The notes under the pieces were generated by a model. It made no database searches. It was not told where the DNA came from and saw only the letters and a program-made list of their open reading frames with translations. The position numbers were made by a program, and so were the translations under genes. Shown here piece by piece: positions 29,832 to 55,831 of a stretch of DNA of 64,000 bases. This DNA is from Candidatus Poribacteria bacterium (GTDB taxonomy: Bacteria; Poribacteria; WGA-4E; PCPOR2b): positions 2,048,001 to 2,112,000 of the forward strand of contig OZ244587.1 of assembly GCA_965218095.1 (NCBI GenBank). Direction: 5' to 3'. Positions within the stretch are counted from its first letter, which is position 1. Each line of letters begins with the position of its first letter.

Positions 29832-30667
29832 GGTTCTGTTGACATTTCAAGGGAGCCATATAAGAAGGGGGCCATATAAGAGTGGAGACAAAGCTGAGAA
29901 ATCCAAAATAACGGATAGCTAACTTCTCGAACCGAGAGAAGATGCGGCGATACCATTTTATCTTGTTAATGAAACATTCAACCCGATGTCTCTCTTTGTA
30001 CAGATGTTTGTCGTAATCTCTTTGATCCACACGATGACTTTTGGGCGGTATCACCGCAATCGCTCCATTCGCCTCAATAACCGCGATAAAATTGTCGGAG
30101 TCATATCCCTTGTCTCCAATCACATACTCGCTTTTATATCCAAGTATCAACCCTTCTGCTTCCGCTATGTCGTTTCTTTGACCGGGCGTCAGATGTATTC
30201 TTAGGGGATTACCCAGGCCGTCAACTGTGATGTGAATTTTTGTACTGAATCCCCCGCGAGAGCAGCCTAACGCTTGGTTTTCAGTGCCACCCTTTTTTTT
30301 TCGGCACCCGCCGCACACGGGTGCGCGCGAATGATTGTACTGTCCACAATAAGCGACTCGATATCGGGGTCAGAGGCGAAGTGGTGGTGCATCTGTGTGA
30401 AGATACCTTTGTCGCACCACCGAGCAAAACGCTTATAGAGGGTGTTCGATTTACCATAGGTGTCTGGCAGAAGTCCCCATTGAGCACCGCTACGGGTCGC
30501 CCAGAGAATAGCTTCGATAAAGCGGCGTGTTGTCGCTTCGTTGCCAACATAGATGTTGGGACAAGTTAGAAGAAACGAGTATATCTTATTCCATTGGTCA
30601 TCGGGTAAGGTTATTGGCATCATTCTTCTATTATGCCACAACCTTATACTCAAATGTCAACAGAACC
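29832..30667 (-). mobile_element. IS5-family (IS427-group-like) insertion sequence, copy 2; carries the exact protospacer of CRISPR spacer 1
   Basis: Same 16-bp TIRs and TA flanks as copy 1; orfA/orfB overlap at an A9 slippery run (30293-30301); one 16-nt duplication near the 3' end. Confidence 0.95.
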
Positions 30668-30874
30668 TAATTTGCAATGGATTTGGTAAGGTAGCGTATG
30701 TCTTCCGACTTGCGCCGTTGCGGATCACAAGTCAGGAAACTCCAATTGCATCGTGGGCAGGCTATGTGCTACGAATATTACTGGTTGGAACGCAAATTGG
30801 TATTAGGCCTTACAATCTACGCAATACGTGCCACACATCTCACACTATAGATCAAAATGGAAAAGGAGATTTTC

Positions 30875-52253: not shown

Positions 52254-53516
52254 ATGAACCACGACATTAAAAACCGAGAGCTCGCAGAAGATGGAAAGCG
52301 GCGAATTGATTGGGCGGATCGCTTTATGCCTGTCCTCCGTCTGATTCGCCAGCGGTTTGAGCAGGAACGTCCACTCAATGGCGTGCGGCTGTCCGCGTGT
52401 TTGCATGTCACGACAGAAACGGCGAACCTGGTGCGTGCCTTGAAGGCAGGCGGTGCAGAAGTTGTTTTGTGTGCTTCCAATCCGTTGAGCACCCAGGACG
52501 ACGTTGCGGCGTCTCTTGTCATGCATGAGGGAATCCCCATTTTCGCAATCAAGGGCGAGGACACTGAAACCTACTACCAACATCTCGATGAAGCGGTCAA
52601 TTTTCAACCGATGATGACGATGGATGATGGGGCGGATCTGGTCTCTCGGCTCCACTCTGAAGAGGCGAACCCTGCCTTTGTCGAAAACGTGCTTGCAGGT
52701 ACGGAGGAGACAACAACGGGGGTTATCCGACTCAAGAGTATGGCAGCCGAAGGGGTGCTTCGGTATCCAATCATTGCCGTAAACGACGCCAAGACCAAGC
52801 ACTTCTTTGATAATCGCTACGGTACGGGTCAAAGTACGCTAGACGGTATCATTCGCGCGACCAATTTGTTGATCGCCGGGACGACTATCGCCGTCGCGGG
52901 CTACGGGTGGTGTGGACGCGGTTTTGCCAGTCGGGCGCGGGGGTTGGGGGCGAATGTCATTGTCACGGAAGTCGATCCGTTGAGCGCGTTGGAAGCAGTG
53001 ATGGACGGCTTCCGCGTCTTGCCGATGATTAAAGCTGTCGCCGAAGCCGATCTCGTCGTTACGCTGACGGGCGATATTCATGTGTTGCGCCGCGAGCACT
53101 TTGAAGCGATGAAGGATGGCGCGATTATTTGTAATTCGGGGCATTTCAATGTCGAAATTAACATCCCCGATCTCAAAGATTTAAGCACCGAGGTGAGAAC
53201 CACGCGAGAGTTTGTCGAGGAATATTCCCTCAAGGATGGGCGCAAGCTCTACCTGCTCGGCGAAGGAAGGCTGATAAATCTCGTTTCGGCGGAGGGGCAC
53301 CCCGCTAGTGTCATGGATATGAGTTTCGCTAATCAGGCGCTGTCTGCGGAGTACGTTGTTAAAAACCATCAACAGATGGAAAATCGTGTTTATGACGTGC
53401 CGGAAGAACTGGATGCCTCTATTGCAAAACTCAAATTGCAATCCATCGGCGTTGAAATTGATGAACTGACGGAAGAACAGCGGACTTATCTCAGTTCTTG
53501 GACGATGGGAACATAG
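52254..53516 (+). CDS. ahcY: Adenosylhomocysteinase
   Basis: [39 protein letters not shown]. Confidence 0.98.
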
Positions 53517-53537
53517 CGTAAAACGTAAGATGCCACC

Positions 53538-53726
53538 GTTTCAATCTTATAAGGGTTTGGTTCGGCGTTGCAACTTACCCAGGCCGTCAACTGTGATGTG
53601 AATTTTTGTACTGGTTTCAATCTTATAAGGGTTTGGTTCGGCGTTGCAACCCCGGCAGTTCTAATGACCGTGCGAACAAACTTGTTACCGTTTCAATCTT
53701 ATAAGGGTTTGGTTCGGCGTTGCAAC
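53538..53726 (+). CRISPR. CRISPR mini-array: 3 identical 37-bp repeats and 2 spacers of 39 bp
   Basis: Repeat GTTTCAATCTTATAAGGGTTTGGTTCGGCGTTGCAAC at 53538-53574, 53614-53650, 53690-53726; spacers at 53575-53613 and 53651-53689; strand inferred from the downstream anti-repeat, omegaRNA and iscB. Confidence 0.95.
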
Positions 53727-53833
53727 CCCGGCGCCTCTGGGAGCCTTGACGTTGTTGGGGTTTTCAACTCTTTTTCTGTCAGCCCCTCCCCAATCGGGGA
53801 GGAGGACACGGTTTGGGGGGATAAGGTAAGTCG

Positions 53834-54217
53834 GTGACAACGCCGAAACCCTTATAGGTGTTGCAAAGCCGGGCTTTCCTGTCAGTCTGCGGGGTTTTTA
53901 TTAGCCCTAGGGTTGGCAGGATTAAATCCTTATAAGGTATCCCTTTAAGTGGTAGATTCTAATTACACTCACACCTAGAAACAGCCTTAGCCCGTGAGTT
54001 GAAAGGAATCTGGGCTACGTTGGTATGATTAGCATACCCTGGGGTGCTCCACCAGCCCCAGGCACTATGGCGGCTCTTTAAGAAGGACTTGGGGAGGTTC
54101 GGTCAACCGCATTTCGCACTCACTTTGAGTGAAAGTCACACCAACATTGGCGGGGTGGATCATACCTATTACCCCCCTATCTCCCTCCCGCAAGCGGGGA
54201 GGGGGAAGGGAGGTAAT
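53834..54217 (+). ncRNA. tracrRNA-like anti-repeat joined to an omegaRNA/HEARO-like scaffold (boundaries approximate)
   Basis: CAACGCCG-AAACCCTTATA (53838-53856) is complementary to the repeat with a 4-nt bulge; HEARO-like CTACGTT, stem CCTGGGGTGCTCCACCAGCCCCAGG (54038-54062), AACATTGGCG; pseudoknot pair TCCACC 54048-54053/GGTGGA 54154-54159; terminal hairpin 54168-54217. Confidence 0.85.
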
Positions 54218-54227
54218 GGAGGTCAAT

Positions 54228-55769
54228 ATGTTTGTTCATGTTTTATCAAAATCAGGTCAGCCGTTGATGCCCACGCATCCGGCAAACGCACGTAAACTGC
54301 TTAGAGACGAAAAAGCCCAAGTTGCGAAAACTAAAACGGGCGTGTTTACGATTCAACTCAATTATGAATCTCTAACATATACGCAACCGATAACCGTTGG
54401 AATTGACACCGGCTCAAAATCTGTGCCGATCGCCGCAGAGGGCAACGGCAAAATTTACTACGCCAAGGAGAAACTATTACGGACGGATGTTAAGAATCGA
54501 CTTTCCGATCGGCGTCAACAGAGGAGAATCCGAAGACACCGTAAAACCCGGTATCGGAAACCTCGTTTTTTGAACCGCACCAAAACGAAATGCAGCCGTT
54601 GCGGTGTCAATAATGTGCCGTGTTTATGGACTCTCAAAAAGCGCGAAGAGGGGCAGACAAAGAAGTGGGTTAAGGGTCGGAGAAAATCTTTATGCAGACC
54701 TTGTAAAGGGCATAAAGGAGAGCATAAGCAACCGACTGTGTTAGCCCCTTCAATTAAGAACCGTGCGGAGAGTATTCTAAATGATGTAGAGAGACTGCGG
54801 AAAACCCTGCCCATCTCTAAGGTGGTCGTAGAAACGGCGTCATTCGATACTCAGAAGATGGCAGATCCGAAAATTAAAGGCGTCGAATACCAGCAGGGAA
54901 CCCTCGCCGGGTACGAGTTGAAAGAGTATCTGCTGATAGTGAACAAGCATACATGCGCCTATTGTGGTAAAAAGGATGTCCCCCTTGAAAGGGAACATAT
55001 TTTGCCCAAAGCCAAGGGAGGCAGCGATCGCATTGATAACGCGACGGTCGCTTGTGTGTCTTGCAATGCCGAAAAAGGCGCGAGGACATTAGATCAGTGG
55101 GAAGAGTCACTGCCAGAGGCGGACGCTCGTAGGCAGGGGATACAGCGGGTTCGGAAAAATGCGAATGTCAAAAAAGAATTCCAGTATTCGGCATTGACCC
55201 AATCCTATAAGAATTATTTGATGAAGTCATTGCGCGAACAGTTCCCTGTAATTGAGGAGACTTACGGTTACATGACGAAGTTCTACCGGATTCGACGGAA
55301 GCTTGACAAAACCCAGATAAACGATGCTATGGTGATTGCATCAGAAGGGGAGCCGTTCCAACTACCGGATCGATTTCTTATAGAGAAGCAGATCAAGAAA
55401 CGGCATCCATATCATTCTATCTCGGACCGACATGGTTATAAAATCGTCAAGTATAAGCGCGATCCTGAAAAATATGGTTTCCGCCTATGGGATCGAGTGA
55501 GTTTCAATCATAAGGAATTCGGAGAAGTGGTTGCTTATATCTCTGCGCTGAAAGAGGATGGCTATTTTGAAATGCGCGATATTGAAGGAGGGAAAATTAA
55601 GGGAAAGCGTCCGACCTGTTCACATAAAAAGTTAAAATTGATAGAACCCGCGAGAACAAACTACATAAGGGAATGGCGCGTAACGCGGACTTCGACGAGC
55701 TCAGACTTCGTCGATCCATTGTTAGCCGGTCCTGCCGAACAACTTCACCTGTTCTCGCTTATGTCATAG
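54228..55769 (+). CDS. iscB: CRISPR-associated IscB RNA-guided endonuclease (513 aa)
   Basis: GQPLMPT (PLMP), RuvC-I GIDTG (D60), Arg-rich bridge helix RRQQRRIRRHRKTRYRKPRFLNR, RuvC-II VVETASFD (E202), HNH CAYC..EHILPKAKGGSD..N..ACVSCN, RuvC-III KTQINDA; GGAGGT RBS before ATG 54228. Confidence 0.95.
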   Translation: MFVHVLSKSGQPLMPTHPANARKLLRDEKAQVAKTKTGVFTIQLNYESLTYTQPITVGIDTGSKSVPIAAEGNGKIYYAKEKLLRTDVKNRLSDRRQQRRIRRHRKTRYRKPRFLNRTKTKCSRCGVNNVPCLWTLKKREEGQTKKWVKGRRKSLCRPCKGHKGEHKQPTVLAPSIKNRAESILNDVERLRKTLPISKVVVETASFDTQKMADPKIKGVEYQQGTLAGYELKEYLLIVNKHTCAYCGKKDVPLEREHILPKAKGGSDRIDNATVACVSCNAEKGARTLDQWEESLPEADARRQGIQRVRKNANVKKEFQYSALTQSYKNYLMKSLREQFPVIEETYGYMTKFYRIRRKLDKTQINDAMVIASEGEPFQLPDRFLIEKQIKKRHPYHSISDRHGYKIVKYKRDPEKYGFRLWDRVSFNHKEFGEVVAYISALKEDGYFEMRDIEGGKIKGKRPTCSHKKLKLIEPARTNYIREWRVTRTSTSSDFVDPLLAGPAEQLHLFSLMS

Positions 55770-55831
55770 AGGTATTGCTGGGAAATATTCACATTAAAAC
55801 TATCGGCTCTTAGAGTAAAGGGGCCTGACTT

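Follow-up and report, generated by a model that had tools for sequence, protein, structure and literature searches.

A single-copy IscB with a CRISPR-like mini-array and a probably split guide RNA in a Candidatus Poribacteria genome

How does an IscB, a transposon type of nuclease with one guide, come to stand behind an array of repeats and spacers, and does it make use of them? This question is raised by a compact unit of about 2.3 kb in a Candidatus Poribacteria bacterium (assembly GCA_965218095.1, contig OZ244587.1), whose complete genome of 6,350,489 bp contains it once. All coordinates given below are positions in the window, the 64-kb stretch of this contig that we analysed. The unit consists of a mini-array of the CRISPR type, a gap, an anti-repeat, a HEARO/omegaRNA scaffold and an intact iscB gene. 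An initial annotation, made from the letters alone, had described three identical 37-bp repeats, a gap of about 110 bp, an anti-repeat, an omegaRNA-like scaffold with its pseudoknot and a full IscB with PLMP, RuvC, bridge helix and HNH, and had taken the whole for a CRISPR-associated IscB with a guide RNA divided between repeat and anti-repeat. The anatomy was confirmed by our measurements, and the proposed division of the guide is supported by two results, as the anti-repeat opens a stretch of high RNA depth and arrays are found at part of the homologous loci. In our view, the locus very probably represents a single-copy IscB of the OMEGA type (obligate mobile element-guided activity) with a split guide RNA, situated between ahcY and a small open reading frame (ORF).

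The repeat GTTTCAATCTTATAAGGGTTTGGTTCGGCGTTGCAAC is present in three copies on the plus strand (53538..53574, 53614..53650 and 53690..53726), which are 100% identical over 37 nucleotides (nt) and follow each other with a period of 76 nt, and both spacers (53575..53613 and 53651..53689) are 39 nt long. Copies 2 and 3 also have the 6 nt that follow them (CCCGGC) in common. The array has the same strand as the omegaRNA and is situated 502 nt upstream of the iscB start codon, and its repeat was found nowhere else in the genome, where a search with up to 3 mismatches gave 3 forward and 0 reverse matches and a control pattern gave 0. Repeat 3 is separated by a gap of 107 nt (53727..53833), which contains a G+C-rich hairpin at about 53781-53805, from the anti-repeat (53834..53870). 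The latter pairs with nt 1-36 of the repeat at -35.1 kcal/mol (RNAduplex), while the repeat, after mononucleotide shuffling, reached a mean of -25.4 against the same 502 nt, with a standard deviation (sd) of 2.9 and a best value of -37.6. It is the best pairing site on the plus strand of the window, followed by 40034 (-34.0) and 2291 (-33.8), and comprises two colinear exact complements to the repeat, one of 10 nt (CAACGCCGAA) and one of 9 nt (ACCCTTATA). Because the energy alone is only moderately unusual, we base the case for the anti-repeat on these exact complements and on its position. A degenerate fourth repeat in the gap was also considered and was rejected, its best local alignment score of 16 being equalled by 181 of 500 shuffles.

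Downstream of the anti-repeat, an Infernal-type search matched the HEARO/omegaRNA family of Rfam (RF02033) to 53897..54165 on the plus strand over the full model (1-211; E 1.3e-14), with 75.3 bits, slightly less than the Rfam gathering score of 83. The pseudoknot has a core of 3 bp, in which GCC at 53984-53986 pairs with GGC at 54149-54151. All 15 loci that were compared have such a core, with compensatory changes, as GCC:GGC in seven, GCT:GGC in three, GAC:GTC and GCT:AGC in two each and GAT:GTC in one, so that the scaffold is supported by the family match as well as by covariation of its pseudoknot.

Using contigs of ordinary RNA-seq libraries (metatranscriptomes, two runs of one study, X10 and X11), we found that one part of the unit is covered far more deeply than the gene. 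A contig of 351 nt from X10 lies on 53836-54155 with a word depth of 60.3 and 1 differing letter, and one of 313 nt from X11 lies on 53837-54149 with a depth of 54.1 and 0 differing letters, whereas contigs on the iscB ORF have depths of 0-4. DNA contigs of other runs extend past both ends of the stretch 53836-54155. According to the RNA-library contigs, an RNA of high representation thus seems to begin at the anti-repeat, 58-60 nt before the scaffold, and we propose 53836..54155 on the plus strand as a putative omegaRNA that would act like a trans-activating CRISPR RNA. A further contig of the RNA libraries, from a variant strain, spans 53698-53855 and thereby runs from repeat 3 to the anti-repeat (depth 7.7). 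Between 53648 and 53821, X11 gives no cover and X10 little, and most of the ORF has none, but holes between contigs prove nothing and were not taken as evidence of absence. Likewise, a depth arithmetic hinting that run X4 is largely without spacer 2 is not usable and was not used. Two similar G+C-rich hairpins flank the high-depth stretch, CTCCCCAATCGGGGAG at 53781-53805 and CTCCCGCAAGCGGGGAG at 54167..54218 (plus strand), the second of which bears the ribosome-binding site of iscB. Their motif CTCCC..GGGGAG has 28 matches genome-wide, 2 of them in the iscB locus, and 5 in a reversed-sequence control.

The closing stem of the scaffold indicates how repeat and scaffold may belong together. Eight unsplit relatives have an omegaRNA whose first 8 nt pair at 7-8 of 8 positions with the 8 nt before the pseudoknot. 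The corresponding 3' strand of the stem is paired by nt 1-8 of the repeat in three relatives with arrays (L009, L012 and L019), at 6-7 of 8 positions and in the register of the unsplit omegaRNAs. In the window, nt 1-8 of the repeat pair with this strand (53975-53982) at 6 of 8 positions, 5 of them consecutive. Here GTTTC pairs with GAAAC (53978-53982), and both strands have changed in comparison with the GTCAA:TTGAC of the relatives. Minimum free energy folding, applied to the 320-nt RNA by itself and together with a CRISPR RNA (crRNA), gave the whole-repeat duplex, the pseudoknot being outside the model of the method, and left two partners for the first 5 nt of the repeat, the stem at 53978-53982 or 53862-53870.

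The iscB gene (54228..55769, plus strand, from ATG at 54228 to TAG) encodes an intact protein of 513 amino acids (aa), within the size range of IscBs (about 400-550 aa). The PLMP motif is found at aa 12-15 within QPLMPT (aa 11-16), and its M14 and P15 are invariant in an alignment of 50 sequences, as are D60, E202, D366 and H257. Matches to Pfam include RRXRR (PF14239, 1.3e-51), HNH_5 (PF14279, 2.1e-12) and PF01844 (5.2e-10) over aa 243-291, and solved IscB structures in the PDB match at E values of 1e-28 to 6e-49. The RuvC residues are D60, E202, Q363 and D366 and those of the HNH domain H257, N271 and N280. Between the bridge helix and RuvC-II, the protein carries an insert of about 40 aa, a CxxC...CxxC Zn ribbon (C122-C159), which is conserved in the clade, and it has no recognition (REC) lobe. 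For OgeuIscB, D61, E193, H340 and D343 are described as the catalytic residues of RuvC (PMC9640706). In our alignments, the position of H340 and of the equivalent His in TbaIscB is occupied in the window protein by Gln363 (codon 55314-55316). A pattern search for this RuvC-III position in 121 proteins had no match in 34; of the others, 69 have Gln, 15 His, 2 Pro and 1 Arg. In the rows that were inspected, the Gln forms were the closer relatives and the His forms an outgroup of about 35% identity. Judged from these sequences, the enzymes of the clade may be natural nickases, or their RuvC may tolerate the exchange of His for Gln.

Apart from a 99% twin, the nearest proteins are 50-57% identical and originate from metagenomes. 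In 60 genomes from the family and order of the host, no match other than the protein itself exceeded 41% identity (G019), so that there is neither vertical conservation nor a near neighbour for covariation. A scan for related loci with the single protein found none, and alignment-based scans succeeded. We fetched 25 loci, with L016/L020 and L007/L014 as near-duplicates, 14 of which have a HEARO match at E <=0.001. Homologous iscB loci do carry arrays, namely 4 of these 14 (L009, L012, L019 and L027), in each case with 30-nt repeats on the same strand and upstream of iscB. The initial annotation had named a complete lack of arrays at such loci as a result that would refute it, and this refutation thus fails. 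Searched with the repeat finder, L009 has an anti-repeat of 20-22 nt with 100% identity at the start of its scaffold and L019 one of 19 nt with 89%; those of L012 and L027 are imperfect and were recognized by eye only, as the repeat finder (seed 8, minimum 14) returned none. In a midpoint-rooted tree of 31 proteins, the window protein and the long-branched P0056 are sister to the other 12 rows of a marked (starred) 14-row clade, and L019, L009 and L012 branch before a marked array-less subclade. With array states at hand for the rows that have a locus, this tree fits one early gain of the array with later loss as well as several independent gains. Between array and anti-repeat, the four loci with arrays also share the conserved hairpin GTCGTCGAyCyCC ... 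GGGGATCGACGA (L009 468-515, L012 1245-1290, L019 475-525, L027 168-200), the 3' arm of which, GATCGACGA, recurs in them directly before the anti-repeat. RNA processing, termination or the former end of an element might account for it.

In five array-less loci (L007, L014, L022, L023 and L029), the iscB frame stops after 40-281 aa although the similarity continues, and by sequence these look like decaying copies. The window unit might itself be such a relic, non-functional as a whole and merely not yet lost, which would agree with its single copy, the missing transposase and a tolerated self-targeting spacer (see below). Nevertheless, its 513-aa ORF is intact and has kept the catalytic residues, its scaffold stretch is found at high depth in the RNA libraries, and the ORFs of the array-bearing L009, L012 and L019 are intact as well (489-500 aa). 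We consider a relic very unlikely.

What stood at the site before the unit can be seen at its borders in related organisms. Contigs from 4 runs of 3 studies join 53512 to 55826, 55832 or 55844 with 15-33 other letters between them. They belong to related organisms with about 87% identity in ahcY. In the genomes G009 and G011, ahcY is likewise followed by 17 nt and then by the small ORF. On account of these empty sites, the 2.3-kb unit is to be regarded as an insertion. Repeat 1 is preceded by the intergenic flank CGTAAAACGTAAGATGCCACC (53517..53537, plus strand), which directly follows the ahcY stop and is unique in the genome as a full 21-mer. Genome G007 carries CGTAAAACGTGAGATGC directly after its ahcY stop, identical at 16 of 17 positions to the first 17 of these 21 nt, and hence at least this part of the flank is host DNA. 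Moreover, a DNA contig of 5,971 nt from run X7 joins 53534 to 53687 and skips exactly 152 nt, that is two repeat-spacer units. This strain, with 49 differences over 2,214 nt (about 98% identical), has one repeat and no spacer. The array content therefore varies between strains, with 0 vs 2 spacers. In the one-repeat allele, the single repeat stands directly after host flank DNA, and 53517-53537 would be its guide-equivalent sequence.

Two further observations concern the flank and the X7 strain. The start of the flank, CGTAAAACGTAAGAT (the first 12-15 nt after the ahcY stop, 53517-53531), recurs widely in the genome, where matches of 15 nt exist at 2 more sites, of 14 nt at 12 and of 12-13 nt at many (372 in total), and some of these are 7 nt apart, like heptamer tandem repeats. 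As for the X7 strain, 24 of its 38 listed differences cluster in 124 nt (55511-55634), which correspond to iscB codons of about 428-470 in the C-terminal region that interacts with the target-adjacent motif (TAM). Both versions of 55511-55634 are present in run X4 as separate contigs of 184 nt (depth 25.1 with 1 difference, depth 8.6 with 24). This segment may have been swapped or may evolve fast, at a place where TAM specificity is expected.

If the array grew from one repeat, its spacers may have been delivered by an integrase in trans, and the host possesses two candidates. It has two type I-D arrays, A with 116 and B with 63 repeats of 37 nt each and together 177 spacers, and beside them genes for Csc3, Csc2, Csc1, Cas6, Cas3', Cas1, Cas4, a Cas4-Cas1 fusion and Cas2. 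A length of 39 nt, as in the iscB array, is found for 10 of the 62 spacers of array B and for 2 of the 115 of array A. A Y1_Tnp match (C1:3422249-3422581) is located between cas1 and cas4 of the I-D locus that adjoins the 116-repeat array. The iscB repeat has a 7-nt prefix in common with the repeat of array A and, read on the minus strand, its last 10 nt, AGATTGAAAC, with that of array B. Whole-repeat alignment scores against A and B lie only about 3 sd above shuffles and derive from the termini.

The initial annotation had interpreted the class 1-like end of the repeat as a sign that a foreign array had been captured, and had suggested looking for the same repeat beside cas1. Capture would mean that an I-D-like repeat-spacer unit recombined to a place before the omegaRNA and that the anti-repeat evolved afterwards. 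The length of 37 nt, which is that of both host arrays and differs from the 30 nt of the relatives, as well as the shared termini could be read in this way. However, the repeat is absent from the rest of the genome, both cas1 loci included, and its likeness to the I-D repeats is limited to the termini, which may also have been under selection to be recognized by the host's integrase. Furthermore, the allele with one repeat and no spacer directly follows host flank, and the pairing between repeat start and scaffold keeps the register of unsplit relatives. Capture is therefore not supported and unlikely. The suggestion that spacers were acquired in trans fared better in part. It is plausible, with two I-D systems that include Cas1, Cas4 or Cas4-Cas1 and Cas2, with 37-nt repeats on both sides and with alleles of 0 and 2 spacers, and the length and the shared termini fit a repeat shaped for the host integrase; we give adaptation in trans by a host I-D module about an even chance.

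What the spacers match bears on their possible use. With blastn-short, spacer 1 was found at 39/39 identity at 18 other sites of the genome and at 38/39 at 22, and there are 132 matches of >=25 nt if the array itself is counted. Its last 16 nt, a typical length of an IscB guide (PMC9640706), are exact at 70 other sites, the 3' flanks of which are AATCCCCC (39 sites), AAACCGCC (27), AATCCCCT (2), GAACCGCC (1) and AAGCCACC (1). All spacer-1 sites lie within an element of about 835 bp with about 130 copies and the terminal inverted repeats GGTTCTGTTGACATTT / AAATGTCAACAGAACC. It contains two ORFs that overlap at an A-run and match DUF4096 (9e-19) and DDE_Tnp_1 (5e-13), and on the basis of these ORFs and the inverted repeats we assign it to the insertion sequences (IS) of the IS4/IS5 family. 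Its copies are 95-100% identical and make up roughly 1.7% of the genome, where it is the most abundant IS; the copy of the window is found at 29832..30670 on the minus strand, with the spacer-1 protospacer at 30209-30247. Spacer 1 is antisense to codons 24-37 of the DDE ORF and thus to the transposase mRNA. Related copies of the IS, with identities of <=81%, were found in 14 of 30 relatives searched. No match of spacer 1 was obtained in phages or plasmids. For spacer 2, the best other match in the genome is 14 nt, none was found in phages or plasmids, and viral contigs gave no exact match to its last 24 nt. Self-matching spacers thus amount to 1 of 2 in the iscB array vs 0 of 177 in the I-D arrays (none beyond 17 nt), which suggests that they are purged from the latter and tolerated in the former. 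Among the matches listed in our literature search, none described an IscB array in which a spacer targets its own genome or derives from an IS.

Such a spacer could mean that IscB binds or nicks the about 130 copies, or that the crRNA acts as an antisense RNA on the transposase mRNA, and that transposition is thereby restrained. This would give a sense to the hit of one of only two spacers in the transposase gene of the most abundant IS, to its antisense orientation and to the clade-wide His-to-Gln exchange in RuvC, which could mean nicking rather than cutting. There is also a precedent in TnpB-derived RNA-guided repressors, domesticated from transposon nucleases (10.1101/2023.11.30.569447). 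On the other hand, there is just one spacer of this kind, which the sister strain lacks, the invariant D60, E202, D366 and H257 do not suggest a dead nuclease, and a neutral self-spacer without a TAM would explain the same facts more simply. We regard control of the IS as improbable.

For the split guide RNA that we favour, we propose the following course of events. An RNA of about 315 nt (roughly 53836-54150) would begin at its 5' end with the anti-repeat (35 nt) and continue into the omegaRNA scaffold. The mini-array would supply RNAs of a spacer and the 37-nt repeat each, which would pair with the anti-repeat and so rebuild the guide-adaptor stem, and with the last 16-20 nt or so of its spacer such an RNA would direct IscB to DNA that adjoins a TAM. 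For the last spacer, action in cis through a hairpin of repeat, gap and anti-repeat is also conceivable. Originally, the repeat would have been single and preceded by host flank as in a normal omegaRNA, an allele that the sister strain would have kept. The two 39-nt spacers would have been added later, most likely by the Cas1-Cas2(-Cas4) module of one of the two host I-D systems in trans, and spacer 1, taken from the genome's own IS5-family element, may persist as it is harmless at these sites. The simplest reason for this harmlessness would be that the flank AATCC/AAACC is not a permissive TAM. Going further, one could see here a CRISPR array caught at birth, in which the 5' strand of the omegaRNA stem became a lone repeat that I-D Cas1-Cas2 extended in trans, with spacer 1, on the leader side, serving as an IS restraint or as tolerated autoimmunity. 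We advance this larger view only tentatively and think it rather doubtful; if it were true, this would be the first natural IscB array used against a resident transposon or restraining it, or a case of borrowed adaptation that is blind to the TAM.

Several results speak against a working split guide and have to be weighed here. The energy of the anti-repeat is only about 3 sd away from the shuffles, one of which was better. Contigs cannot prove ends, strand or level of an RNA and give only a weak hint of its ends, and no crRNA was seen in the RNA-library contigs of the one study. A scan of 53400-54300 found 0 sigma-70-like promoters (shuffle mean 1.1), and with 3 terminator-like sites in the same range (shuffle mean 1.4) the promoter and terminator scan was uninformative. 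The scaffold has a 5' strand of its own in cis (53894-53901), which pairs with the closing-stem 3' strand at 7 of 8 positions and beats the 6 of 8 of the repeat, and for this reason the scaffold could fold without any RNA from the array. Cutting of both DNA strands is not assured, given that the RuvC His is replaced by Gln (Q363). With 70 perfect self-targets of 16 nt, an active nuclease would kill its cell if the TAM were permissive, and the presence of these sites may equally mean that the system does not work. With regard to adaptation in trans, the flanks of the array had no convincing likeness to I-D leaders or trailers in 16 comparisons; the sole excess over a leader, that of the reverse complement of the gap against leader B (24 vs a shuffle maximum of 22, in about 12 nt of CTGACAGAAA), is too weak. 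Finally, the 3 nt beside the spacer-1 protospacer are GGA on one side and, read on the complementary strand, ATT on the other, and do not match the GTN motif of type I-D systems.

Some of these results could be accommodated by an ordinary omegaRNA, in which IscB uses the scaffold from about 53894 with a fixed upstream guide and the repeats are an inert by-product of duplication or recombination outside the ribonucleoprotein. The cis strand and the lack of a crRNA would be expected, and cmscan indeed aligns a full-length HEARO without the repeat. However, the RNA-library contigs start exactly with the anti-repeat, 58 nt before that scaffold, and the 24 nt that would occupy the guide position before the cis-strand scaffold have no other match of >13 nt in the genome. 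Perfectly identical repeats with equal spacers are the signature of an integrase-type insertion, spacer 1 is a precise 39-nt internal piece of an IS, and the anti-repeats of the relatives with arrays change together with the repeats. Inert repeats thus have little probability in our judgement, and we maintain the split guide RNA as the best reading of the locus.

CRISPR-associated IscB is an already published kind of system, reportedly since Altae-Tran 2021, and the window locus is a member of it in a different IscB clade. According to one source, the association of IscB with CRISPR arose independently in several small branches (PMC10734277). The best described example is DelIscB, which was characterised and engineered, and for which the native non-coding RNA is given as spacer, repeat, loop, anti-repeat and scaffold, with the statement that it is not known whether it is processed into two RNAs (PMC12660989). 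Window locus and DelIscB have in common the upstream array on the same strand, the anti-repeat fused to the omegaRNA scaffold, a distance of about 100 nt from the last repeat to the anti-repeat and the lack of adjacent cas1, cas2 or cas4 (PMC12660989). By eye and without an alignment, DelIscB differs in its 457 aa, in PLAP for PLMP, in having no CxxC...CxxC insert and in a His in KTH..DA (PMC12660989, supplement), whereas the window protein of another clade has 513 aa, the Zn-ribbon insert and Gln; its locus also has a complete closing strand in cis, a self-targeting spacer and an allele without spacers.

The best match among solved structures is TbaIscB (PDB 9K30; E 6.4e-49, 170 bits, aa 2-372), which one paper calls the founding IscB of the Cas9 lineage. 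Both proteins have RFxNR and L(A/P)PS motifs around a Cys-containing insert that lies between the bridge helix and RuvC-II, but the similarity is only moderate, and TbaIscB has His at the position of Gln363 and a shorter insert. As a statement of descent, the intermediate between IscB and Cas9 that the initial annotation had proposed is at most a possibility, since TbaIscB would place the protein near the Cas9 lineage but the association with CRISPR reportedly arose more than once among IscBs (PMC10734277). Type II-D Cas9 (Cas9d) is described with a RuvC into which HNH is inserted, Zn ribbons near RuvC-II, a CRISPR array with tracrRNA and adaptation genes that are often not in the locus (PMC9755519). 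In contrast to the window protein, it has a REC domain and about 740 aa, and it matches weakly (E about 4e-17 over aa 162-430), while the window locus has kept the PLMP domain and a large HEARO-type scaffold. OgeuIscB (PDB 7XHT/7UTN) has the same order of domains, with the guide 5' of a guide-adaptor hairpin and a nexus pseudoknot (PMC9640706). The canonical IscB of IS200/IS605 elements resembles the one-repeat allele, which has host flank in the guide position, and differs from the window locus in that the latter has a split guide-adaptor stem, two acquired spacers, no tnpA and one copy.

The genomic setting agrees with neither of the two classical assignments. A scan for Pfam-type domains in the ORFs between 48.3 and 61.2 kb found housekeeping genes, with S1, metK and ahcY upstream of the unit and an ORF of 78 aa, a pfkB-type kinase, PHP, tmk and holB downstream. 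As first reported, no tnpA, cas1, cas2 or cas4 is nearby: no tnpA or cas gene adjoins the unit in genome-wide scans for Cas1 and Y1_Tnp, cas2 and cas4 not having been searched genome-wide on their own. The two Cas1 loci of the genome, at 3.42 and 4.78 Mb, are both >1.3 Mb away from the unit, and of four Y1_Tnp matches the nearest (C1:3422249) is at a distance of 1.32 Mb. The genome has one RRXRR gene and one HEARO match. An IS200/IS605 transposon would have TnpA alongside or multiple copies, neither of which is found, and with no REC lobe at 513 aa and no cas1-cas2 in the locus we did not classify the system as a type II Cas9.

Overall, the locus adds to the published kind the cover by RNA libraries, the empty sites, the one-repeat allele, the spacer that matches an IS and the array-bearing homologues. 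It is a natural test bed, as the complete genome also holds two full I-D adaptation modules, alleles with no and with two spacers occur in near-identical strains, empty sites are at hand and the scaffold RNA is found at high metatranscriptome depth. The cell already contains the targets of spacer 1, with flanks of two types, and therefore permits a direct test of TAM rules, of the tolerance of self-targeting and of adaptation in trans. The compact protein, close to TbaIscB and with a Zn-ribbon insert and the His-to-Gln exchange in RuvC, may be of interest for the construction of nickases. Little is known about how the arrays of CRISPR-associated IscBs gain their spacers, and these systems are a living analogue of the step by which a transposon nuclease, tied to one fixed guide, became Cas9 and gained an array that can be updated.

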